From Escherichia phage EC.W14-3: DNA of 64,000 bases. Shown piece by piece: positions 9-53,253 of the stretch (its first letter is position 1; every line of letters starts with the position of its first letter). Location: sequence record PP496998.1. One strand, given 5' to 3'. Below the pieces are notes generated by a model. The model did no database searches. It worked only from the letters and a program-made list of their open reading frames with translations, and had not been told where the DNA came from. The position numbers and the translations under genes are program-made.

Positions 9-224
9 ATGCTCAGCGCCACCGTGCACGTCGCATCGTTGAAAAGCGCGATGGAAAAGCTGCTGTCAGAGGTAAAGACGTTGGACACAAACGAGCTGTC
101 AAGTCTGGAGGCTCTAATGCGTCAAGCAACTTACGTGTTGAATCAGTCAGCTCAAACCGTTCAAACGGCGGCAAAAGTGGTGATCGAGCTGGAAAAGCAA
201 ACGGAGCTAGGAAGGGGGCGTTGA
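9..224 (+). CDS. hypothetical protein; frame is open to the window start so it may be the 3' part of a longer gene
   Basis: ORF track; no stop between position 3 and 9 in frame; no recognisable motif. Confidence 0.3.
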   Translation: MLSATVHVASLKSAMEKLLSEVKTLDTNELSSLEALMRQATYVLNQSAQTVQTAAKVVIELEKQTELGRGR

Positions 225-716
225 GTGGTTCTTGATGACACCTTATCTTACGATGCGGTCACAGGTAACCTATATTACACAAAATCTCCTAGCAAAGGAG
301 TGATGTGGAACAAAAGCCACCCCGGAAAGATAGCTGGATGTATGATATCGAAAGGCTATATCGGTGTGTATTTCCAAGGAAGACGATGGAGAGCGCACCG
401 ACTTATAGCTACGCACTTTATACCAAACCCTAACAATTATCCAGAAGTCAACCACATCAATGGGATAAAAGACGATAATCGACTGGAGAATCTTGAATGG
501 GTATCCGCTTCTGAAAACATACAACATTCCTTTGATACAGGGTTGAATAAAGGGCACACTCGTGACAATAACGGAATGACCAAATTATCCTCTGGAGATG
601 TTGTAAAGATTAAACAGATGTATGTGAAGGGTTCTAGGGATTTTGGCTCTAGAGGTCTTGGTAAGTTGTTTGGCGTGAGCCATACAGCTATACTCCATGC
701 TTTAAAGGAGCTTTAA
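225..716 (+). CDS. HNH homing endonuclease (HNH_3-like)
   Basis: GTG start abutting upstream stop; motif HRLIATHFIPNPNNYPEVNHINGIKDDNRLENLEWVSASENIQHS typical of phage HNH homing endonucleases. Confidence 0.7.
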   Translation: MVLDDTLSYDAVTGNLYYTKSPSKGVMWNKSHPGKIAGCMISKGYIGVYFQGRRWRAHRLIATHFIPNPNNYPEVNHINGIKDDNRLENLEWVSASENIQHSFDTGLNKGHTRDNNGMTKLSSGDVVKIKQMYVKGSRDFGSRGLGKLFGVSHTAILHALKEL

Positions 717-724
717 GCTCATCG

Positions 725-750
725 TAATATGAGGCTACCCAAATGGGTGG
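725..750 (+). terminator. rho-independent terminator-like hairpin
   Basis: GGCTACCCA / TGGGTGGCC stem followed by TTTT. Confidence 0.45.
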
Positions 751-795
751 CCTTTTCTTTCATATAAACCAAAATAAACTTCTTAGGTAATAAAT

Positions 796-1050
796 ATGTC
801 TATTGTAAAAATCGTAAATATTTTTGATGTAACCAGAGATGGCAAGATTGTTAAGTGGACTTTCACTAACCACCACAACAAATCAAACAAGATCATCGAA
901 CGGATGATTGAGATTAACCCAAAAACAGCTCGCACTAACGTACTCCTTCGAGGAGCTGATGGAAAATTTATCTCTTATAAGAATAAGAACGTAGAAAAAT
1001 CTTTCCGTGTTGCAGTAGAAAATCTCATCCCATTCCCTAAAGGAGTTTAA
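796..1050 (+). CDS. hypothetical protein, tandem paralog of 1052..1336
   Basis: shared C-terminal block KTARTNVLLRGADGKFISYKN / KTARTNVMLRDSKGKFISYRD. Confidence 0.45.
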   Translation: MSIVKIVNIFDVTRDGKIVKWTFTNHHNKSNKIIERMIEINPKTARTNVLLRGADGKFISYKNKNVEKSFRVAVENLIPFPKGV

Positions 1051-1051
1051 T

Positions 1052-1336
1052 ATGAATAAGTTAGCTATGGTTCAGATTCGAGACACATACCCTAACCGCC
1101 CGGAGCAGAAACCGCGTACTTGGTCTTATCTGTTGGCTGAAAGTAAGACTATTGACAAATACGCTGTAGGGATTGATGCTATTCCAAATAGTGTCACATT
1201 ACTCCCTCACAAAACAGCCAGAACTAATGTAATGTTACGTGATAGCAAAGGTAAGTTTATCTCTTATCGTGATTCAAGAATCAATAATGAAATTAAATCT
1301 GCTGTGGAATTTTTGATGCCATTCCCAAGAGGTTGA
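1052..1336 (+). CDS. hypothetical protein, tandem paralog of 796..1050
   Basis: shared C-terminal block with preceding ORF; tight spacing. Confidence 0.45.
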   Translation: MNKLAMVQIRDTYPNRPEQKPRTWSYLLAESKTIDKYAVGIDAIPNSVTLLPHKTARTNVMLRDSKGKFISYRDSRINNEIKSAVEFLMPFPRG

Positions 1337-1339
1337 GTT

Positions 1340-1499
1340 ATGAAAGAGTATATTTACGTTGGTCAGCGGTGGTTCGGTGATGAATGGGAAGGTGGATACA
1401 GCGTTGTGAAAGCTTTTAAGTCTGAAGAAGATGCCAAGGCATGGGTCTTAAAAGATGACGTTGGCGAGAGAACTTACATTGAAGTAGAGGTGGAGTAGA
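1340..1499 (+). CDS. small hypothetical protein (about 52 aa)
   Basis: ATG found by eye overlapping previous stop; below ORF-track cutoff; coordinates approximate. Confidence 0.3.
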
Positions 1500-1922
1500 A
1501 TGCCATTACCAGCTAGACACCAAAACCGTTTCTTAGTTCTTAAGTGGGATGATATCGAAATGAATCTCACTGAACATGAACTTGATTTGTTCCATGAACT
1601 ACTGTCAGAGATTCGCTCTGGTATCCCTGAACGTCAGTATGTGGTTATCAGTGATAAGCACCCTCAAGAGTTTGAAGAAGCTTGGGGTATGAAGTTGGCT
1701 TACATTCAGAGAGCTATCCGAGAAAGAGAAGAAGTCGCTAACCAAAGGGTTGTGGCTCATTTAGTACGAGAGCAACCTCGTGAAGCTAGGGCTAACCATG
1801 CACCACCTCCACCTACTCCTCGGATAGTTGTTAACGGGGCGGTTAGGGCTTACAGTTATGAAGCTACCGCGTTAGATGTGATAGAAGATAACCAAGCATT
1901 TACAGATTTACTTTACCAATAA
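1500..1922 (+). CDS. hypothetical protein
   Basis: ORF track; co-oriented and tightly packed upstream of the polymerase. Confidence 0.4.
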   Translation: MPLPARHQNRFLVLKWDDIEMNLTEHELDLFHELLSEIRSGIPERQYVVISDKHPQEFEEAWGMKLAYIQRAIREREEVANQRVVAHLVREQPREARANHAPPPPTPRIVVNGAVRAYSYEATALDVIEDNQAFTDLLYQ

Positions 1923-1938
1923 TTTAAAGGAGTATAAA

Positions 1939-3783
1939 GTGAGCAACCCGGACGCTCTTCCATTTTTGACAGAGATGACTGTCGCTGATATAATCTCTAA
2001 GCAAGCAAAGCACGGAGTTAGTTTCAACCGAAGAAATGCTCGGTGGTATGTTCACCTCCTTAAAGAGATTATTGTTAATATTGACAGAGAGTTGATTCCT
2101 CTCTTACCTAAGATGAGATTAGATGGCTCTACTTATATGAAGCCGTTTAAGAAGTCTGGAGCTTTACAGAAGTGGCCTCAAGCTTATTGTGATAGGGTTG
2201 GGCTGAAAAGAGAAGACATTGGTGGAGCATTCACCTGTGTCGAATATGTAGACTTTGATCCATCGAAAGATGCACGAGTTAAAGAAGCTCTTATGGATGA
2301 GGGCTTTCTTCCTCCAGAGTTTAACGTATCTAAGAAGCCTTGGAATACTTTCGAAATTAAGAAAGATATGAGAAAGTATGGAACATACCAAGCATGGTAT
2401 ACTGCTTGGATGCGAGGTAATGCTAAACAGAAGCAGACAGCCGAGATGGTTGACGCTGATATTAGAAAGTTCTTAGAGAAGCATTTTCGGTTTAAAACTA
2501 AGAACTACATGAAGGCTTACGTATTTGGTTTGGGATTAAACCCTAATCGCCGTAATCCTGTAACGTTTGATGAGATTAAGAAAGCACTAGCCACATCAAA
2601 CAAGTGGCCTACAGCTCCTACAAACCTCGAGGAGACTCTTGAAGAAGGGTTAGGGGGTGAGCTAGGGAGTGTCGGAAGTTTGCTTAAGAGACGCGTTGTG
2701 GCGGCTCACAGGCTAGGTCTTATCAGTGGACTCATAGCAAAGGAACGCGAAGATGGTAAACTTTCGGCAGAAGCTAACAGCTGCGCTACGCCGACTTTTC
2801 GATTCAAACATCGTATCGTGGTTAATATTCCCTCCCGTGGTCTGTTTGGTCACGAGTGTCGCAGTTTGTTTGAGTCTGACTATAACTCAGACAGTGATCA
2901 CTCTCGTCCTTTCGTTATTACTAACGTTGTTCCTGATGGTTGTTATATACGAAAAGGTACTAACGTAATTTACGAGAAAGGTAAGCCGGGGAAGAAAGAC
3001 AAACCTGTAGGCGCTTACAAATATTACATACCCACTGGTAAAGAAGTATTCTTAGGGTATGATGGTTCTGGACTGGAACTTCGTATGCTCGCTCACTACC
3101 TCATTAAAGAGTGTAGGGATATGCTTGCTGAGGCAATTGAAGAGAACAACCCAGCTAAGAAAGCTCTGGCAGAACGTGGTTTAGCTTCTGCTATTATGTA
3201 TCGTGATATTCTCCTTGAAGGTGATATCCACTCCCACAACCAGAAACTTGCTGGTCTTCCTACTCGTGACAACGCTAAGACATTTATCTATGCATTCAAC
3301 TACGGTGCTGGCGATGCTAAGCTTGGTTCAATTGTAGGTGGTGGGGCTGACGAAGGTTCAGTGATGCGAGCACGTTTCTTAGCAGAGAACCCATGTATTG
3401 CAATCCTCATTGATCGTATGACAGAGAAAGCTGCTCAAGGATACTTGATTGGAGTTGATGGTCGTAAGATTACAATGAGACGGGATGCCACTGGTAAGGT
3501 TATGGTTCATAAAGCCCTTAACACACTCCTGCAATGTGCTGGTGCTGTTGTTATGAAATATGCTATGATGTTCCTTAACAAGTGGATTGAGAAAGATAAG
3601 GTTCGTTGTGCTAAGGTAATTGATATGCACGATGAAGGTCAATTCTCAGTAAACCGTAATGATGTACAGAAACTCAAAGAGCACACTGAGCTTTGTGTTA
3701 AGAAAGCTGGCGAGTATCTGAACATGGAATGTCCTCTGGCATCTGATTGTCAGATTGGACTTAACTGGATGCATACACACTAA
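1939..3783 (+). CDS. DNA polymerase, family A (T7-like), polymerase domain
   Basis: motif KTFIYAFNYGAGDAKLG and surrounding palm/fingers-like sequence; 614 aa; no 3'-5' exonuclease Exo motifs seen in the N-terminal region. Confidence 0.85.
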   Translation: MSNPDALPFLTEMTVADIISKQAKHGVSFNRRNARWYVHLLKEIIVNIDRELIPLLPKMRLDGSTYMKPFKKSGALQKWPQAYCDRVGLKREDIGGAFTCVEYVDFDPSKDARVKEALMDEGFLPPEFNVSKKPWNTFEIKKDMRKYGTYQAWYTAWMRGNAKQKQTAEMVDADIRKFLEKHFRFKTKNYMKAYVFGLGLNPNRRNPVTFDEIKKALATSNKWPTAPTNLEETLEEGLGGELGSVGSLLKRRVVAAHRLGLISGLIAKEREDGKLSAEANSCATPTFRFKHRIVVNIPSRGLFGHECRSLFESDYNSDSDHSRPFVITNVVPDGCYIRKGTNVIYEKGKPGKKDKPVGAYKYYIPTGKEVFLGYDGSGLELRMLAHYLIKECRDMLAEAIEENNPAKKALAERGLASAIMYRDILLEGDIHSHNQKLAGLPTRDNAKTFIYAFNYGAGDAKLGSIVGGGADEGSVMRARFLAENPCIAILIDRMTEKAAQGYLIGVDGRKITMRRDATGKVMVHKALNTLLQCAGAVVMKYAMMFLNKWIEKDKVRCAKVIDMHDEGQFSVNRNDVQKLKEHTELCVKKAGEYLNMECPLASDCQIGLNWMHTH

Positions 3784-4914: not shown

Positions 4915-5324
4915 TGTCTAAAGGATTTGACATGAATATTGGTTTAGATTATGATGACACTTACACAGCAGATAGACGTCTGTGGAGAGATGTGATAGGA
5001 TTGATGAAAGGGTATGGACATGATGTAAGATTCGTGACTTTCCGTTTCTCAGAGCCTAATGGTTATGATAACGTGGATATCCTCTATGATGCAGAGACCC
5101 TGCAAATCCCTGTCATCTTTTGTAATGGTGTGCAGAAGGATGAGGTGTGTCGACAGTTAGGTTTCTTCGTCGATATCTGGATTGATGACTTCCCTGTTGG
5201 AATCCCCAAAAAGGACCACCTAGATGGTATGCTGAAGGGCGTAAGACTTAATGACCTTAGGGCAGCACCTCCTGTAGAAATAGCCGCTCCTGTGTACTCT
5301 GAAGAGCCTTTGGTGATTCGATGA
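4914..5324 (+). CDS. hypothetical protein with HAD-like DxD motif (possible phosphatase/nucleotidase)
   Basis: N-terminal IGLDYDDT and later WIDD resemble HAD motifs I and III; weak. Confidence 0.3.
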   Translation: MSKGFDMNIGLDYDDTYTADRRLWRDVIGLMKGYGHDVRFVTFRFSEPNGYDNVDILYDAETLQIPVIFCNGVQKDEVCRQLGFFVDIWIDDFPVGIPKKDHLDGMLKGVRLNDLRAAPPVEIAAPVYSEEPLVIR

Positions 5325-5485
5325 AGAAATATAGTGTATGGATTAACGAGGAAGAAGAAGGTTTTGATGAAGCTGGAGGGTGGGTGAATATCCTAAACAC
5401 CGACGACATAGAAGAGGCCGAGAAGTGCGCCCTAAACTATAACTCTGGATATTATGAAAGAAATTGGGAATATGGGGAAGAAGAA

Positions 5486-5706
5486 TGATTTGGGTTCACA
5501 CTTATAGAATTGGAAAGAAAGGGCTTACTACTATTCATACCTCTGAAGACAGTGCTAAAGCATCTCAGGCTGTACTGAAAGGGAAGATCACACCTTATGT
5601 AGTCGCTGAAGAAAAGAAGAGTCCTCCAGTTTTGGAATACTTAGGAACAGGTAAAGCTTATACAGCACTGGATGTTATTAACAACAAACAAGGAGATGTG
5701 GCATAA
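5486..5706 (+). CDS. hypothetical protein
   Basis: ORF 5464..5706, start chosen at ATGA overlap. Confidence 0.3.
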
Positions 5707-5708
5707 AA

Positions 5709-5924
5709 ATGGAATACATTGATAAATACTCAAGTGAAGACTCAACCAACGCTGAAGTTTTGTTCGTACTAAAAACAGACTGCCTCGAACATGGTCAGCT
5801 CATTAACTTTATGGAGTTGGCAAAACTTAAAGAAGAGATTGATCAACTATACAGCGATGAGCAATCCAGATTACTTTCCCTGTCCCTGCTAGGTGACTTA
5901 ACTTGTGATGGGTGTACTATCTAA
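5709..5924 (+). CDS. hypothetical protein
   Basis: ORF track. Confidence 0.35.
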   Translation: MEYIDKYSSEDSTNAEVLFVLKTDCLEHGQLINFMELAKLKEEIDQLYSDEQSRLLSLSLLGDLTCDGCTI

Positions 5925-5933
5925 GAGGTCTTT

Positions 5934-6437
5934 ATGGCTGAAGTTTATTTTGCAGGGGATGGTCACTTAGGCCATCGCAACATCTGTAGTTTTCGTAAGC
6001 AATTTAAAACCATCGAAGAACACGACAAAGTAATCCTAGCTGCATTTGATCATGTAACTAAGCGTGATAAAATCTTCTTTACCGGTGATTGGGTGTTTGA
6101 AAAGTATGCCCTTGATATCATCGCTGAAGTAAGAGGAGAGAAGCATCTAGTCTTAGGAAACCATGACAGGTTAGAACTTCTCCCTGATATGATGAAAGTC
6201 TTCCGTAGAATCTCTGGTGATTATAAATATAAAGAGTTTTGGGTAACTCATATTCCTATTCACACTGATGAGATGAGAGGAAAGTTTAACATTTATGCTC
6301 ATACACACAACCATGTAATTGATGATTGGAGATATTTCTGTACATCAATGGAGCAAATTGACTATAAAGCTGTTTCTCTGCAAGAGATTAGGAAGGTCTT
6401 TGATGAAAGAAGAAAAGAACAAGATCTCATTATTTAA
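5934..6437 (+). CDS. metallophosphoesterase (calcineurin-like phosphoesterase)
   Basis: ordered motifs GDGHLGH, FFTGDW, GNHD, THIPIH, AHTHNH. Confidence 0.6.
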   Translation: MAEVYFAGDGHLGHRNICSFRKQFKTIEEHDKVILAAFDHVTKRDKIFFTGDWVFEKYALDIIAEVRGEKHLVLGNHDRLELLPDMMKVFRRISGDYKYKEFWVTHIPIHTDEMRGKFNIYAHTHNHVIDDWRYFCTSMEQIDYKAVSLQEIRKVFDERRKEQDLII

Positions 6438-6915
6438 AGAACCTGTAGTACATAAAGATTCTATCAGAGATCAATATAATGAGATGTTAAAGAAACAAGC
6501 TGATTCTAATCTTCGTTATCAGAGGATAGTAGAACAATCTAACTTTAAAGGTTTACTTGAATGGTAACTTATATCCTTTACTTTTTAGCTTTCTTAGGAA
6601 TAGTCTTTTTATCTATTCTTATTGAATTTGGTTTAAGTAAGTTAGTTAATTATTTAGGTAATAAGTAATTAATATTCTTTTAAATAGAGAATCAAAGTCC
6701 CTAGGAGTCCCTACAACCTAAATCAAGGATTCCTTAATTCTCTATTTTTATCTCGCAGGTGGCTCCTGCCCTTCGGTACTTGCAAGGGATTCTGTGAATT
6801 GCCCAATATACAAGCCTGCAATAACTTTATCAGCTATACAATATATACATTACTAGTGTGATATATCTACTACCAAAGATACTTATATTATATAGTACTC
6901 TTATCGGTATAAGCG

Positions 6916-6924
6916 TAATGTATA
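6916..6924 (+). promoter_or_regulatory. TAATGTATA motif, candidate phage-sigma-dependent promoter element upstream of the SSB gene
   Basis: exact 9-mer also found upstream of two minus-strand structural genes (17095..17103 and 33925..33933 as reverse complement). Confidence 0.4.
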
Positions 6925-6983
6925 CTATACATAACCGCTCAAAGAGAGCAACAATCTTTCAAATTAAATAAGGAAATTAAAAT

Positions 6984-8283: not shown

Positions 8284-9769
<1,486 letters not shown>

Positions 9770-9779
<10 letters not shown>

Positions 9780-10669
9780 ATGAAGAGGTAAAAGCTTTAA
9801 AGAAAGCTCTTGCAATTAAAATCAAACATTTAAATTTCGTCAGAGATGAGTTGGAGGAGCTATCCAACTTATCAGGATATGAGTTACAGAATGAGCTTGT
9901 AGAGTTTCAAATCAATATTGATGGCGGTAAATACGTAGAAACAACTAGAGCGATTTTACCTAAAGTTACTGGTAACAAAACTTCTCCAGTAGACTACTCA
10001 CATGACCACACGGAGCAATTAGAAATGGAATCTCAAGGCAATCCAGCACTGACCAATATGGTGGGAGATTCCCATTATAAGCCTTTAGTAGTAATTCTTA
10101 ATGGGCCTCCGGGTTGTGGTAAAGATACGATAGCCAATGCTTGGGTCAATGCCCATTCATACCATCACAATTATTCAACCAAATCCTTCAAGGAGCCAAT
10201 GTACAAGGTAGCTGCTGCTGCACTAGGCATACCTCTAGAAAACTTTCTAGCACGCTATGAAGACCGTGAATGGAAAGAAAAACCTAGACCAGAATGGGGA
10301 GGGAAGTCTGTAAGAGATTTGATGATTTCTACAAGTGAAGACTTCTTAAAACCTATGTTTGGCAACAGCCATATGGGGGATCTTGCTGTAAAAAGCATCA
10401 AACAAGAAGGGTTAGGTCAGGATGATATTGTCATGTTTACTGACGGAGGTTTTGATGCAGAGGTACGAGAACTAGAAAAGAATTTCCATGTCCAAGTTGT
10501 ACAAGTTCTTAGAGATGGTTGCTCTTTTGATGGAGACTCTCGCTCATATATTGAAGGCGAACAGAGAAAAACATATCTACTGTTTAATGACTCAACTATT
10601 GAATCAGCAGTATCAGATCTAGATTGGATTATTGCTCAAGCTCAGGATGATATTTATGGAAGAAGTTAA
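9770..10669 (+). CDS. P-loop nucleotide kinase (dNMP-kinase-like)
   Basis: Walker A LNGPPGCGKDT; N-terminal coiled-coil extension of about 100 aa. Confidence 0.5.
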
Positions 10670-11474
10670 GCTCCCTGAAGTTGCTATAGTGGACGCTGAC
10701 GTTCTTCGGTATGAAGTGGGCGCTCTTACTCAGGAGCATCCCTTTCTTGACACAGGACGTGTTCCAGTTGATTACAATTTCATGATTGAACGACTTCAGT
10801 ACAAGATCGATACAATCATAGCTCGCTCGGGTTGTAGTAAGGTTGTATTCTACTTCAGCGAAGGTGGTAACTTTCGTTTCGATGTTGCTAAGCAACAAGA
10901 CTACAAGGCAAATAGACCTCCCGGAGAAAGACCTTTTCACTGGCAAAACGTTGGCGATTACATTAAAGCCAAGTACGAATATGTTGAGGTCTTTGGGAGA
11001 GAAGCTGATGATGCATTAGCTGAAAGGCAACGTAGGGATAAGAATACTATCATCTGTACTAGAGACAAGGATTTGTTGATAACTCCCGGATGGCATTATC
11101 GCTGGGCTTGTGGAGAAAGACAGAAAGAAGTACCTCCTCATTATGTATCTGACTTGGTATCATGGCAAAATTTCTTCTATCAAATGTTGATTGGGGATGG
11201 GACAGATAACATTCCCGGATGTGGTGAACGTAAAGAAGTTATGTGGGGCGGTAAGCTCCAGCTACGACGTCAAGGTGTCGGGAAGAAAGCAGCAGCTAGT
11301 CTGTTGGCTGGTGTTGCAGATAAGTGGACCATGTATCATATAGTACGAATGGAATATTATAAGAAGTTCGATACTGAAGATGAAGAGAAGATGCTCGAGA
11401 ATGCTCGGCTTCTCTTTGTTGGTCAGACTCCGGAAGACCTGTTCGACTGGACATGGTTAGATAAATCTTGGTAA
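10656..11474 (+). CDS. 5'-3' exonuclease / flap endonuclease
   Basis: IGDGTDNIPG helix-3-turn-helix motif and acidic N-terminal block AIVDADVLRYE; start chosen at MEEVK. Confidence 0.65.
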   Translation: MEEVKLPEVAIVDADVLRYEVGALTQEHPFLDTGRVPVDYNFMIERLQYKIDTIIARSGCSKVVFYFSEGGNFRFDVAKQQDYKANRPPGERPFHWQNVGDYIKAKYEYVEVFGREADDALAERQRRDKNTIICTRDKDLLITPGWHYRWACGERQKEVPPHYVSDLVSWQNFFYQMLIGDGTDNIPGCGERKEVMWGGKLQLRRQGVGKKAAASLLAGVADKWTMYHIVRMEYYKKFDTEDEEKMLENARLLFVGQTPEDLFDWTWLDKSW

Positions 11475-12275: not shown

Positions 12276-12598
12276 GAACTGACATTATCACACAAGCAGA
12301 TAAAAATAAACTCTTCGACTTAATCCACGACCTATTAGAAGCTCAGAGCTTTATTGACAATGCCGATACTTGGGAGATGGAAGCAGCTGGAAAAGCTTTT
12401 GATGAAAGTGAAGAGAAACTTACTAATTTTATAAACACAATCTAGGAGGGTATATGAATGAAGAAGTTGTTATCCTTGGAAGTAAATCAGATTGGTTCTA
12501 TGGAGGCATCTCAGGATGCTTTGAAGATGAACATCCAGACTTCTGAAGAAAATTGGGATGTATGACGAATTTGATGGTTTTTAAAACTTAGAAACAAA

Positions 12599-22673: not shown

Positions 22674-23708
22674 TTACCAACTCCCTATTCTTATGCGAAG
22701 AGTTCCACTCCCATCATAAAAATCTATTCTATTACCATTCATCCACAACTGAGAACCACCTGTACCACCCATAACAAAATCACCACCAACAGTAAGTCTC
22801 CAGTTAGAACCCCACATAGAACCAGCAGTGATTTTATCCGCTGATAAGTTCTGAATCTGAGCATTGGAGATAGATACGTTATCAATCTGTGCCCATTGGA
22901 TCCTAGCGTTGGCAATCTGAGCAGTTGTGATGTTGACGTTCTTTATGTCAGCGAATTCCATCCTAGCTCGCCCACCCTCAAATACGAAGGGGGTATTCCC
23001 AGAGCTGCCATCACCAACAATAAATTTGTTAGCTGTTACTTGGAATTGACTGTTTGTTCCGTTGTTAGTTAACTTGACCCCAGCATATCTTCCGTTGACT
23101 GTAGAGTTAACACCCCACGTAGCTTCATACTCAGAGAGTTTCATATACTGAGAAAGGCTTCCGTTGATATTTTGCAGTTCTGTCTGAACAAGAGCAATCT
23201 CTTGACCTTGATCGTTAACAATACCTTCTACTGTCTGAATTTTAGTTGTGTTACCTTCGATGCTGGTCTTAAAACCAGATACAGTGCTTTCTAGCTTCAC
23301 AGGGGGTTGAACAGAATTATCCCAAATGTCCTCAGTGGACAGGTTCCCCATCTGGGTTTGGATATCTGCAATAGCTGTTTCTATCTCTGTAGTAATTCTA
23401 TTCTCAAGCTCATCAAATTGTAGATTCATTGCATTAAGAGCTTTAATACGAACATCAATCTCTTCGTGAATTTCATCTATAGCTTGGAACATTTGGTTAG
23501 TAGCTGTGCTAACTTTTTGTAATTCATCATACACGGCTACGTTATATGTTTCTGTGTCCTGTACATTATTGAGAAACCCAACGTTGTACGGGAGTGTGGT
23601 GTTGTTGCGACCAGTGTTCTTACGAAAACCACCTGCACCCATAAGTTCCTCCAAAACAATAAAAGGGGCACGAAGCCCCTTGTTGTTATCTCCGCCCGCC
23701 AACAGCAA
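22674..23708 (-). CDS. tail fibre-like structural protein
   Basis: coiled-coil segment then repeat-like NVSISNAQIQNLSADKI stretch. Confidence 0.4.
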   Translation of the reverse strand: MLLAGGDNNKGLRAPFIVLEELMGAGGFRKNTGRNNTTLPYNVGFLNNVQDTETYNVAVYDELQKVSTATNQMFQAIDEIHEEIDVRIKALNAMNLQFDELENRITTEIETAIADIQTQMGNLSTEDIWDNSVQPPVKLESTVSGFKTSIEGNTTKIQTVEGIVNDQGQEIALVQTELQNINGSLSQYMKLSEYEATWGVNSTVNGRYAGVKLTNNGTNSQFQVTANKFIVGDGSSGNTPFVFEGGRARMEFADIKNVNITTAQIANARIQWAQIDNVSISNAQIQNLSADKITAGSMWGSNWRLTVGGDFVMGGTGGSQLWMNGNRIDFYDGSGTLRIRIGSW

Positions 23709-26703
23709 ACTCTATCGTTAAACCATTGATAGCAGCATTACTATTAACATCATTATCTATAACATTATAGAAAAGGTATGGATGGTTCAGTCTCACCGAG
23801 ACATGCCTGTCAACACCGATCGTATATGTCTTAGATGTGTGTGGGTGTCCATATTCATTTGAGAATTGACTACCACCAGCTTCAAATATGTAAGTACCTG
23901 AACCAGTTGTCTGAGGTCGGAACCTGTTAATATGCTTCTGATTCCACTCATTCGTCACATTATCAAAATCTATACCAGTCCTCTCCAACCTCATTTCCAG
24001 AGGCTTCTCTATAACAACATCATTTAGCCTGTCATAGAAGTAATCAAGAGCACCTACATCCACTTGATAGAATCCCTTCAAGAATGAACCTACTATCGTA
24101 ACCCTCTGTCTAAAGTTTGTTGCATCCTTTCTCCAAACGAGTTCTTTAATAGATGGGTCATCCCAAGTGATTTCTTGGAAGTCAGACCAGATTGGACCTC
24201 TTTCTAAAACAGGAGGATCAACCAGACCAATACACTGAGCATATGGGATAGTACGGAATGACCAAGTATCAAACTCGTAGTTCCATACAGCAGCTTTAGT
24301 ACAAGCGAAGCTTTCTTTTGGCTCTCCCGGACCTACGTACAGAACCCAAACTTCTTTCTTATCCTGATGCAAATGCACTCGAGTTGCTAGAGGGTTAACC
24401 AGACATACCTCGTTAATCAGCATATTCTTAACACGGTTAGATGCAATTGACTTCTTAGTTGCACCGTTGTGTAAGATTACATCGTTCTGAGTAACTACGA
24501 AGTGACTACCTTCTACTTCAACCACACACTCAGGAGCAAGGATACCAGAGTCGTTAAAGAGCTTCTTGAACATTAGAGGTTGGTACGTGTTATTAGTCGG
24601 AGAACCAATATACGTTTCAAACTCTGTATAAACGAACAAGTAATCTTTAAGAGGTAGGATATCAATCAAGCTACCATTAGAATCTGCTAAGTCAATGTAA
24701 CCAGCATACCCATTCTCTAGAGCCTGAGTCTGCCCTACGATGTTAGAAGCTAAGTCCGAAGACACAACTCGATCATAGGCAAAGTCATCCCACAGTGTAG
24801 GAGCCTTGTTCTCATTGGCAAAGTTAGACCAACGAAGACGAAGCGGGTAGTTAGTGGTAACACCAGAAGCATTAGCCTCTCTCATATTCAGAGCAAAAAG
24901 ACGGTTGTTAAAAGATCTTACTCTCTCACATTTCCAGTTAAACTTCTTGACTGAAGGGTTTCCATCACTATCCACCACTGTTTGCTCACCCCACCCCGGA
25001 AGGTCTACAAAGTATTCTGATTCGAATTCTTTTACCTGAGGAGTTTCATAGTGAGTTGTAGCAACTGCACAGTTAGAGATAACAGCGTGATACCAAGGGT
25101 AGTCATCAAAAGCATCGTAATCCTTCTGAGTCATCTGACTGACAGTACATGTTACGTTAATCTCTCCTTTACGAAGAGCAACCAGTTTGATAGATTTACC
25201 AGTGACTGAAGTTGTAGAAACATAACCAGTTTTATCAACAGACCACTGATAAGAGTACTCACCTTCTGGAGAAGCTGTGGCTGTAATGACAACCTCTTCA
25301 CCAACATCAAGAGAAGCGCTGACAATATCTAAGGTTACAGATGACAAAGGGGTTGCCAGTAAAGAAGCTCTTGCAAAACCTTCAATGTCATTCACGTTAG
25401 AGTAGTCATAGAAGTTATTACCTTCGTACATCCCTGACGTATCAATACCGGATGTAGGCTCAGCAAAATAAACCGTCTCTTCACTTTCAGGAGGAGTTAC
25501 TACTTCTTCCTCTTGAGTTTCTACTGACTCTGACACAGGAGCAGCAAATGCCATAGAACTTGTTCTCATTGTTCTTCCAGCTAAATCTACACGTACAGTA
25601 CAGACAGCAACCCTGTTGCCTTCTTCAGTGGTAGCTGTAATCTCAGTAAAGCCAGCAAGTAAAGCGTTGATCGTCCCTTGTGTGCTAGTCCCTGATACTG
25701 TTGCAATATTTGGATTAGAAGAGGTCCAAGTAATATTTTGATTAGGGGCGTTAGCAGGAGAAAGGGTAGCAGTTAAGATATACTGAGAACCTCTACTCAC
25801 AATAACATCTGACTGGCTTAAAGAGATACTATCAATCTGAGGGATGGAAACAACCTCACAAGAAGCAGTCTTAGTTCCGTTATCAGCAGTGATTGTTACA
25901 TTACCTTCTCCATTCGCTGTAATGACAGCAGTTAAAGAATTGGCGTTAGGGGTTACGGATACAATAGAAGCGTTATTGCTGGACCAAGTTACAGGAGTCT
26001 TGCCAGTAACAGCCGTGAGAGTAGTAGTCCCTCCTTTACGAATTGTAACAGTGTCTTGACTCAAGAAGATGCCTGAATCACCGTCGATGATATTAACAGC
26101 AATCTGAGCCACTACGGATTCGTTGGCAGTAGAGATAGTTACTACAAGATTACCTTCTTTCTCAAAAGATGTTAGAGTAGCAAGTTTAGAGTCACTAGGG
26201 TCTACCGTAATACTTCCATAGGATGAGTTACTAACCTCCCAAATAAGATCAGTATTGTTAGCATCAGCAGGGAGAAGAGAAACCTCTAGATTCTTGGTCT
26301 GATTGAAGTTCATTGAGATAGTTGATTCTTTAGGAACGATCTGAGAAACAACTGGATAAATCTTAATTGAGGCAGAAGCCTTCTTAGTGACTGTAGCAAC
26401 CTTACGGCTAATATCAGTCAAGCTTTCATCTGTCAGTTTATATAACTTCTTATCCGTACCTACAACAAGAAAGCTATTACCTGCGCTATAATAATCGAAA
26501 GGCATAGAAACGAAAGACAGAGGGGTTAAATCCTTATCTTCATCTACATAAGAAAGAGGGGCATTGCCCCCCGTCTTAAATACTCTCTGCTCAACAAATC
26601 GAGCATTTATAGCATTAGTGAAAGCATTAGGAGCTAAGTCTGTCGGAGCCTGATCAGCGATAATGCCTACAGCACCTAGTGACTTTATTGGATACAGCGC
26701 CAT
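23686..26703 (-). CDS. large tail/baseplate protein with bacterial Ig-like (Big_2-type) repeats
   Basis: several about 80-aa repeats of the form ...ITATTEEGNRVAVCTV... / ...TITADNGTKTASCEV... Confidence 0.5.
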   Translation of the reverse strand: MALYPIKSLGAVGIIADQAPTDLAPNAFTNAINARFVEQRVFKTGGNAPLSYVDEDKDLTPLSFVSMPFDYYSAGNSFLVVGTDKKLYKLTDESLTDISRKVATVTKKASASIKIYPVVSQIVPKESTISMNFNQTKNLEVSLLPADANNTDLIWEVSNSSYGSITVDPSDSKLATLTSFEKEGNLVVTISTANESVVAQIAVNIIDGDSGIFLSQDTVTIRKGGTTTLTAVTGKTPVTWSSNNASIVSVTPNANSLTAVITANGEGNVTITADNGTKTASCEVVSIPQIDSISLSQSDVIVSRGSQYILTATLSPANAPNQNITWTSSNPNIATVSGTSTQGTINALLAGFTEITATTEEGNRVAVCTVRVDLAGRTMRTSSMAFAAPVSESVETQEEEVVTPPESEETVYFAEPTSGIDTSGMYEGNNFYDYSNVNDIEGFARASLLATPLSSVTLDIVSASLDVGEEVVITATASPEGEYSYQWSVDKTGYVSTTSVTGKSIKLVALRKGEINVTCTVSQMTQKDYDAFDDYPWYHAVISNCAVATTHYETPQVKEFESEYFVDLPGWGEQTVVDSDGNPSVKKFNWKCERVRSFNNRLFALNMREANASGVTTNYPLRLRWSNFANENKAPTLWDDFAYDRVVSSDLASNIVGQTQALENGYAGYIDLADSNGSLIDILPLKDYLFVYTEFETYIGSPTNNTYQPLMFKKLFNDSGILAPECVVEVEGSHFVVTQNDVILHNGATKKSIASNRVKNMLINEVCLVNPLATRVHLHQDKKEVWVLYVGPGEPKESFACTKAAVWNYEFDTWSFRTIPYAQCIGLVDPPVLERGPIWSDFQEITWDDPSIKELVWRKDATNFRQRVTIVGSFLKGFYQVDVGALDYFYDRLNDVVIEKPLEMRLERTGIDFDNVTNEWNQKHINRFRPQTTGSGTYIFEAGGSQFSNEYGHPHTSKTYTIGVDRHVSVRLNHPYLFYNVIDNDVNSNAAINGLTIEFAVGGRR

Positions 26704-53177: not shown

Positions 53178-53253
53178 GCGCTCTTAGCTCAATGGATAGA
53201 GCAGTAGCCTTCTAAGCTATTGGTTACAGGTTCGAGTCCTGTAGGGCGCACCA
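53178..53253 (+). tRNA. tRNA-Arg, anticodon UCU
   Basis: hand-folded cloverleaf: 7-bp acceptor stem (one G-U), D-arm GCTC/GAGC, anticodon loop CTTCTAA, T-arm ACAGG-TTCGAGT-CCTGT, discriminator A and encoded CCA. Confidence 0.8.

Follow-up and report, generated by a model that had tools for sequence, protein, structure and literature searches.

The 64,000-nucleotide stretch of Escherichia phage EC.W14-3 DNA analyzed here (PP496998.1; hereafter the window) carries near its 5' end a gene for a 614-amino-acid (aa) family A DNA polymerase that has no 3'-5' exonuclease domain. Our results make it highly probable (roughly 0.9) that this open reading frame (ORF) encodes the polymerase subunit of a T7 gp5-like replicase, that the exonuclease domain is encoded by a separate gene upstream of the window with the break at the interdomain linker, that this split is ancestral, and that a nearby HNH endonuclease gene is independent of it; the exonuclease protein would then provide proofreading. 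An earlier note on this DNA had suggested a split polymerase with its exonuclease part upstream and had attributed the interruption to insertion of the HNH gene. The former suggestion is supported by the results below, and the latter is contradicted by them.

Over its first 8 kb, the window is 100% identical to EC.W2-6 (PP445229.1) and EC.W8-1 (PQ030848.1), with 0 mismatches over the 20,500 nt common to the window and the fetched part of PP445229.1, and a further 105 records match at 80-97% identity. EC.W2-6 and EC.W8-1 are Kuravirus (Gordonclarkvirinae), which are phiEco32-like podophages with elongated heads. DNA upstream of the window was read from these two records, in whose numbering (record positions below) window position 1 is position 12409.

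A polymerase gene without an exonuclease domain

The 614-aa ORF is predicted to provide the polymerase subunit of a replicative family A enzyme resembling T7 gp5 (Table 1). The Pfam profile DNA_pol_A (PF00476) covers residues 361-611 (83.1 bits, cut-off 34.3), and T7 DNA polymerase, to which the protein is closest, is matched by phmmer (E = 1.3e-32) and by BLASTP against gp5 (27% identity, E = 4e-38). Both programs align the ORF residue for residue with T7 gp5 across motifs A, B and C, all of which are intact, with Tyr451 of motif B opposite the Tyr of T7 KTFIY. Across 52 homologs, the residues D375 and E380 (motif A), R443, K447, Y451, Y455 and G456 (motif B), and H564, D565 and E566 (motif C) are invariant. 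The AlphaFold2 model (pLDDT 90.7) has a right-hand family A polymerase fold according to Foldseek, with the top 27 matches all being T7 DNA polymerase (E = 1e-25 to 1e-19) and the next ones Bst, Klenow and Taq. The gene is 98.2% identical in nucleotide sequence to phi32_53 of phiEco32, an intact 1,845-nt ORF is present at ≥80% coverage in 77 of the 90 matching records, and mass spectrometry detected the homolog in phage SU10 at 69.2 kDa, which fits a stand-alone protein. The coordinates, GTG start and family assignment given in the earlier note are all confirmed.

Family A polymerases typically, although not obligatorily, carry a 3'-5' exonuclease on the same chain, as in T7 gp5 and Klenow. 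The claim that positions 1939..3783 encode no Exo motifs was confirmed by alignment with T7 gp5, by Pfam, by the AlphaFold model and by tblastn. The ORF aligns to T7 gp5 from residue 318 (main alignment), or from approximately residue 293 if a weak stretch is included (E = 6e-5), to residue 704, and neither BLASTP nor phmmer found anything significant between it and the gp5 exonuclease domain. No exonuclease or RNase H-like Pfam family matched residues 1-200 or 1-300 at E ≤10, and the model opens with two long helices, with no RNase H-like sheet there. From its residue 12, the ORF aligns to the region just after the exonuclease domain of a fused relative (P0117, see below). In addition, a tblastn search with the phage's own exonuclease protein gave no match in the 64-kb window at E ≤10. 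Domain alignments to T7 gp5 were made pairwise (BLASTP and phmmer) in place of a three-way MAFFT alignment of gp5 and the two ORFs, which had made the N-terminal part of the polymerase pair with the exonuclease domain and gave no information in that region.

As a separate observation on this gene, a perfect sigma-70 consensus (TTGACA, a 17-nt spacer ending in the TGn of an extended -10, and TATAAT) lies at window positions 1966-1994 (+), within polymerase codons 10-19. It is the sole match with ≤1 mismatch in the window, where 0.04 would be expected. phiEco32, YF01 and SU10 all have the element without a mismatch. Synonymous changes turn the -35 hexamer into TTAACG in EP335, and a distant relative has neither hexamer. 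The match may be a by-product of the conserved L-T-E-M-T-V-A-D-I-I peptide.

A separate upstream gene for the exonuclease domain

Inspection of the DNA upstream of the window revealed an ORF with an exonuclease domain, 23 genes before the polymerase gene, which agrees with the earlier suggestion of a split polymerase whose 3'-5' exonuclease part lies upstream. This 185-aa ORF (Table 1), identical in PP445229.1 and PQ030848.1, is found 6.8-7.4 kb ahead of window position 1. It comes straight after the primase/helicase gene, whose end it overlaps by 7 nt, and the two genes are predicted to be translationally coupled. Its stop codon is separated from the polymerase start by 8,781 bp, with 23 annotated genes between.

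Pfam DNA_pol_A_exo1 (PF01612) matches the 185-aa ORF at 38.5 bits (cut-off 23.6). The protein is 32% identical to T7 gp5 residues 1-196 (E = 5e-17), its DIE, HNxxxFD and YCEQD motifs line up with Exo I, II and III of T7, and a YxPP linker motif that is common to both closes the alignment. T7 DNA polymerase provides its sole sequence matches in the PDB. The residues of the DEDDy (DnaQ-like) signature are all in place (Exo I D12/E14, Exo II N63/D68, Exo III Y152/D156), and D12, E14, H62, N63, D68, Y152 and D156 are invariant among 34 stand-alone exonuclease homologs (163-195 aa, down to 35% identity), a pattern that would be expected of an active enzyme under purifying selection. Because these catalytic residues are all invariant across the family, the replicase is probably not exonuclease-deficient. 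Hence, the other option raised in the earlier note, an exonuclease-deficient enzyme, holds for the 614-aa polypeptide alone, but probably not for the replicase.

The 5'-3' exonuclease is also encoded apart (Table 1; Pfam 5_3_exonuc_N, E = 6.4e-7, with 29.7 bits falling short of the 34.3 cut-off). As the polymerase, 3'-5' exonuclease and 5'-3' exonuclease genes are all apart from one another, three Pol I-type activities are distributed over separate genes.

Among the 23 intervening genes are those for a nucleotidyltransferase, dCTP deaminase, a Dps/ferritin-like protein, a thioredoxin-like protein, ThyX and PhoH. The 453-aa nucleotidyltransferase (record 5567-6928) starts 2 nt after the exonuclease stop codon, belongs to phrog_12715 and is conserved as phi32_73; its match to the PolyA_pol head domain is weak (E = 7e-4, below the cut-off). 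Some database labels in this region call for revision. The exonuclease ORF is labeled plain "DNA polymerase" in PP445229.1 and PQ030848.1, which could mislead automated annotation, and the label should read "exonuclease subunit". The product of record 8482-9045, labeled "integrase", matches Pfam Ferritin-like (E = 2.5e-7), and its phiEco32 homolog is a Dps-family DNA-binding protein; the integrase label is probably wrong. PQ030848.1 (76,408 bp) is annotated as circular. If it were the source of the window, the window would be its last 64,000 nt, and in the circular representation the exonuclease gene also lies ~5 kb past the window's 3' end.

Break point and age of the split

Two fused metagenomic relatives, P0117 and P0118 (607 and 618 aa, respectively), carry both domains (PF01612 and PF00476) in one chain and were used to locate the break. 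The exonuclease ORF corresponds to residues 15-165 of P0117 (41% identity, E = 3e-33). Further along P0117, residues 181-296 match residues 12-129 of the polymerase ORF, and residues 315-607 match its residues 244-614 (44% identity, E = 1e-92). As P0117 matches the two ORFs on either side of the linker, comparison with this intact homolog places the break in the exonuclease/polymerase interdomain linker. The break would thus correspond to a point near T7 gp5 residue 200, and each half is predicted to be a complete domain with intact catalytic residues. Since both halves match domains of fused relatives, they share one ancestry.

T7 gp5 (e.g., PDB 1T7P) is the closest solved structure for both halves, and Exo I-III and motifs A-C are the same in kind. 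It is, however, a single 704-aa chain, whereas in EC.W14-3 a distance of 8.8 kb separates the genes for the two domains. Relative to T7 gp5, the polymerase of Kuravirus also has extra insertions, namely residues ~56-241 between two long N-terminal helices and two stretches of ~40 aa and ~25 aa, the former preceding motif A and the latter between motifs A and B. The polymerase domain of the fused relatives is without the Kuravirus insertions. The gene neighborhood of P0118 starts with a primase/helicase gene. The closest fused form found was ~44% identical to the polymerase. A polymerase homolog with 49% identity, on a 119-kb contig, had no exonuclease gene within 10 kb upstream.

Stand-alone exonucleases and stand-alone polymerases co-occur in Kuravirus, LUZ24-like phages, BUCT695 and relatives from Bacteroidales metagenome-assembled genomes. 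For example, phiEco32, the Kuravirus type species, has the same split and a likewise separate 5'-3' exonuclease, with the same gene order (primase/helicase, exonuclease, nucleotidyltransferase, dCTP deaminase, further genes, polymerase). It differs in having no HNH cassette between phi32_58 and phi32_57, and otherwise by point differences only. In LUZ24-like phages (Bruynoghevirus), gp25 is a "DNA polymerase exonuclease subunit" and gp34/gp36 are "DNA polymerase part II", the polymerase being 39-42% identical to that in the window. As in EC.W14-3, the LUZ24 exonuclease gene follows the primase/helicase gene, and the polymerase gene is further downstream on the same strand, although the spacer is ~2.3 kb with eight small genes, compared to 8.8 kb with 23 genes here. 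Overall, these comparisons indicate an ancestral split that has been retained in phiEco32-like phages (Kuravirus and relatives) as well as in LUZ24-like phages, rather than a recent disruption. It is much older than the HNH cassette and predates the divergence of the Kuravirus and Bruynoghevirus lineages.

The split as such is already known. In the phiEco32 RefSeq entry, phi32_53 is described as "DNA polymerase, lacks 5'-3' and 3'-5' exonuclease domains" and phi32_74 as "DNA polymerase exonuclease subunit". Separation of the two genes has been stated for the phiEco32 group, and likewise for phages 7-11, Privateer, Vp_R1 and BUCT695 (PMC9965538), and was described for LUZ24-like phages with credit to Savalia 2008 for phiEco32 (PMC3517423). 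Added here are the mapping of the break point to the linker and the recognition of the HNH cassette as an unrelated, sporadic insertion.

An independent HNH cassette upstream of the polymerase gene

The HNH endonuclease gene and four small ORFs that the earlier note had listed ahead of the polymerase gene are present as described (Table 1). The product of the former matches Pfam HNH_3 (40 bits, cut-off 24.8) and PHROG 59 (HNH families, E = 1e-32). A DNA alignment of four phages shows a clean insertion of ~0.5 kb, from the last codons of the phi32_58 homolog to just before a hairpin, and the 3' junction of the cassette repeats AAAGGAGCTTTAA, the original end of the phi32_58 homolog. This site lies 1.2 kb upstream of the polymerase start, and 7 kb of DNA separate it from the exonuclease stop.

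Occupancy of this site varies. In phiEco32, there is a 68-bp intergenic gap and no HNH gene; the site is occupied in YF01 by an HNH allele of 79.5% identity and in SU10 by an unrelated 97-aa ORF (positions 743-1036 of the SU10 locus). The junction of the phi32_58 and phi32_57 homologs (window ~200-730) is thus an insertion hot spot, empty in phiEco32 and variously filled in the others. The HNH gene occurs at ≥95% identity in only five database records, and any related HNH gene in at most 16 Kuravirus-type records, compared to 90 records carrying the polymerase gene. These alignments and counts indicate that the HNH gene is an independent, free-standing homing-endonuclease cassette, present or absent among near-identical phages, and not part of the polymerase. 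It resembles other free-standing phage HNH endonucleases (HNH_3/NUMOD4-type, PHROG 59) in its HNH_3 domain and in its presence or absence at a fixed site in near-identical genomes; as with those, it sits between genes and disrupts no essential ORF, and homing is putative. By cutting HNH-less genomes near its insertion site, the endonuclease would be able to spread among these phages.

Polymerase genes of some kuraviruses and other relatives do contain interruptions, within the gene itself. Homologs such as P0014 and P0100 are interrupted inside motif B, with P0014 stopping at ...KTFIYAFN. In Escherichia phage ManiMatter_Bas94 (Bas94), the polymerase gene is annotated as a join of two pieces, and the interruption (positions 1937-2605 of the locus) matches the Rfam group I intron model RF00028 end to end (E = 5.9e-9; 43.3 bits, under the gathering score of 50), and an endonuclease VII ORF lies within it. 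A comparable intron with endonuclease VII interrupts the LUZ24 polymerase gene. In contrast, the polymerase ORF in the window is continuous, and no Rfam intron was found at gathering score anywhere in the window. Unlike endonuclease VII in the Bas94 and LUZ24 introns, the HNH endonuclease here is not intron-encoded.

All four small ORFs are annotated in the 100%-identical GenBank records and belong to conserved PHROG families without an assigned function. The first two are tandem paralogs, each matching phrog_6814 at E of ~1e-36, and share the C-terminal motif KTARTNV(L/M)LR..GKFISY...FP(K/R)G. The GenBank label "autotransporter adhesin" on the 84-aa ORF is without Pfam support. Elsewhere in the window, a single tRNA gene (53178-53250, +; RF00005, 72.4 bits) is the sole Rfam match at gathering score.

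Table 1. Features of the split polymerase system and of the HNH insertion site (window positions unless marked as record positions)
Feature	Position	Strand	Basis or remarks
3'-5' exonuclease ORF, 185 aa	record 5008-5565 (PP445229.1, PQ030848.1), outside the window		aligned to T7 gp5 1-196
phi32_58 homolog, 3' part (105 aa; full ORF starts 83 nt before the window)	9..224	+	phrog_4590; hosts the HNH insertion
Inserted HNH cassette (compared with phiEco32), taking in the last ~8 codons of the upstream gene, which are rewritten	200..730	+	four-phage DNA alignment
HNH homing endonuclease gene, free-standing, 163 aa	225..716	+	Pfam HNH_3; GTG abuts the stop codon of the upstream ORF
Terminator-like hairpin (731-754) and T-run	731..764	+	scan; kept in phages with and without HNH
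Small ORF, 84 aa	796..1050	+	phrog_6814, phi32_57 homolog
Small ORF, 94 aa	1052..1336	+	phrog_6814, phi32_56 homolog
Small ORF, 52 aa	1340..1498	+	phrog_17007, phi32_55 homolog
Small ORF, 140 aa, immediately before the polymerase gene	1500..1922	+	phrog_11427, phi32_54 homolog
Shine-Dalgarno AAGGAG	1928..1933	+	5 nt before the polymerase GTG; read from the sequence
Polymerase subunit gene, 614 aa, GTG start	1939..3783	+	T7 gp5-like; homolog of phiEco32 phi32_53
Motif A DGSGLELR, residues 375-382, predicted catalytic Asp375	3061..3084	+	aligns to T7 DASGLELR containing D475
Motif B RDNAKTFIYAFNYG, residues 443-456	3265..3306	+	aligns to T7 RDNAKTFIYGFLYG
Motif C HDEGQ, residues 564-568, predicted catalytic Asp565	3628..3642	+	aligns to T7 HDEIQ
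Separate 5'-3' exonuclease (FEN-like, 272 aa), phi32_33 homolog	10656..11474 (record 23064-23882)	+	GenBank CDS

Alternative explanations

The proposal that the HNH insertion interrupted the polymerase gene implies a contiguous exonuclease-polymerase gene that was recently split, with the small ORFs carried along. The HNH gene does sit between the two halves, and homing endonucleases interrupt the polymerase genes of relatives (the intron with endonuclease VII at motif B in Bas94 and LUZ24). Nonetheless, the proposal is already refuted by phiEco32, which has the same split without an HNH gene and with only the 68-bp gap at the site, and SU10 has a different ORF there. The halves are 8,781 bp and 23 genes apart, and the HNH gene is just one of those 23 intervening genes, others of which encode, for example, dCTP deaminase, ThyX, PhoH and the thioredoxin-like protein; it is 1.2 kb away from the polymerase start and 7 kb away from the exonuclease stop. 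Moreover, the junctions of the cassette fall inside the 3' end of another gene, the phi32_58 homolog, and the split is also found in LUZ24-like phages and other distant relatives and predates the Kuravirus/Bruynoghevirus divergence. We therefore regard a recent split by the HNH gene as very improbable. The chances are slimmer still that trans-splicing intron halves or a split intein rejoin the two parts into one polypeptide. Relatives do have group I introns in the polymerase gene, but the exonuclease ORF is wholly covered by its alignment to T7 1-196, leaving no room for an N-intein, and the polymerase is aligned with the fused relative from residue 12, leaving none for a C-intein. No Rfam intron reached gathering score within the window, and the SU10 polymerase was detected at 69.2 kDa, not at the ~90 kDa of a joined protein. 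An assembly or annotation artifact, or a degraded pseudogene, is an equally negligible explanation for the separate ORFs: nothing was found in its favor, the 1,845-nt ORF is intact in 77 of 90 records at ≥80% coverage, the catalytic motifs are invariant, and the SU10 polymerase was detected by proteomics.

It is also conceivable, though unlikely, that the polymerase alone is an exonuclease-deficient replicase and that the DEDDy exonuclease serves some other purpose, for example primer processing, recombination or the breakdown of host DNA. In favor of this, 8.8 kb lie between the two genes, which belong to different predicted transcription units; a 7-nt overlap couples the exonuclease gene to the primase/helicase gene and not to the polymerase gene, and the literature searched gave no report of an interaction between the two proteins. 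However, the nearest solved homologs of the exonuclease are the N-terminal domain of T7 gp5, and the ORF ends with the YxPP linker that follows the T7 exonuclease domain. The exonuclease and polymerase are also 41% and 44% identical, respectively, to domains of fused relatives, and the stand-alone pair co-occurs in all four of the groups named above (Kuravirus, LUZ24-like, BUCT695 and Bacteroidales-associated relatives).

Possible cooperation of the separately encoded domains

By analogy with T7 gp5 and Pol I, the 185-aa protein would supply 3'-5' proofreading to the 614-aa polymerase, and it may do so as a non-covalent subunit of the polymerase or in trans. The common ancestry of the two halves with fused enzymes and the co-occurrence of the stand-alone proteins in the same lineages favor such a partnership. 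Two points weigh against it: the literature searched contained no biochemical report of an exonuclease-polymerase interaction or of proofread replication, and the two genes fall into different predicted transcription units because a gp36-type promoter, TAATGTATA, lies between them.

The sequence TAATGTATA is the published phi32_gp36 middle/late promoter, positioned in phiEco32 before genes 40 and 58 (PMC8948821). An exact match to this consensus occurs at record 12281-12289, 127 nt before the window and upstream of the gene-58 homolog, which places the polymerase gene downstream of the gene-58 promoter. Another exact match is at window 6916-6924 (+), upstream of the gene-40 homolog. Neither the polymerase nor internal promoters are covered in PMC4331800.

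For processivity, the T7 polymerase depends on thioredoxin supplied by the host, whereas the phage studied here encodes a thioredoxin-like protein of its own, a 91-aa thioredoxin-domain protein between the exonuclease and polymerase genes (record 9294-9569; phrog_22, E = 1e-12; phi32_65 homolog). A thioredoxin-like protein was also detected in the proteomics of SU10. In the AlphaFold model, an insertion of ~185 aa lies between the two long N-terminal helices of the polymerase (H31-55 and H242-267), and part of it aligns to T7 gp5 residues 293-362, a stretch which we take to overlap the thioredoxin-binding loop. It is possible, though we hold this only tentatively, that the replicase is a three-part, non-covalent holoenzyme of the T7 gp5/thioredoxin type, comprising the polymerase, the exonuclease and the phage thioredoxin-like protein. 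A similar pairing of thioredoxin and polymerase was hypothesized for this phage group (PMC7881722).

The present analysis is useful mainly as a correction, in that the HNH gene is a bystander mobile element and not the cause of the split. Of moderate interest to enzymologists is the way in which a proofreading domain with a gene of its own may cooperate with a T7-like polymerase. To our knowledge, a three-part non-covalent family A replicase has never been characterized biochemically. If this arrangement proves true, it would mean that in family A polymerases the modules for proofreading and processivity are exchangeable as free subunits.

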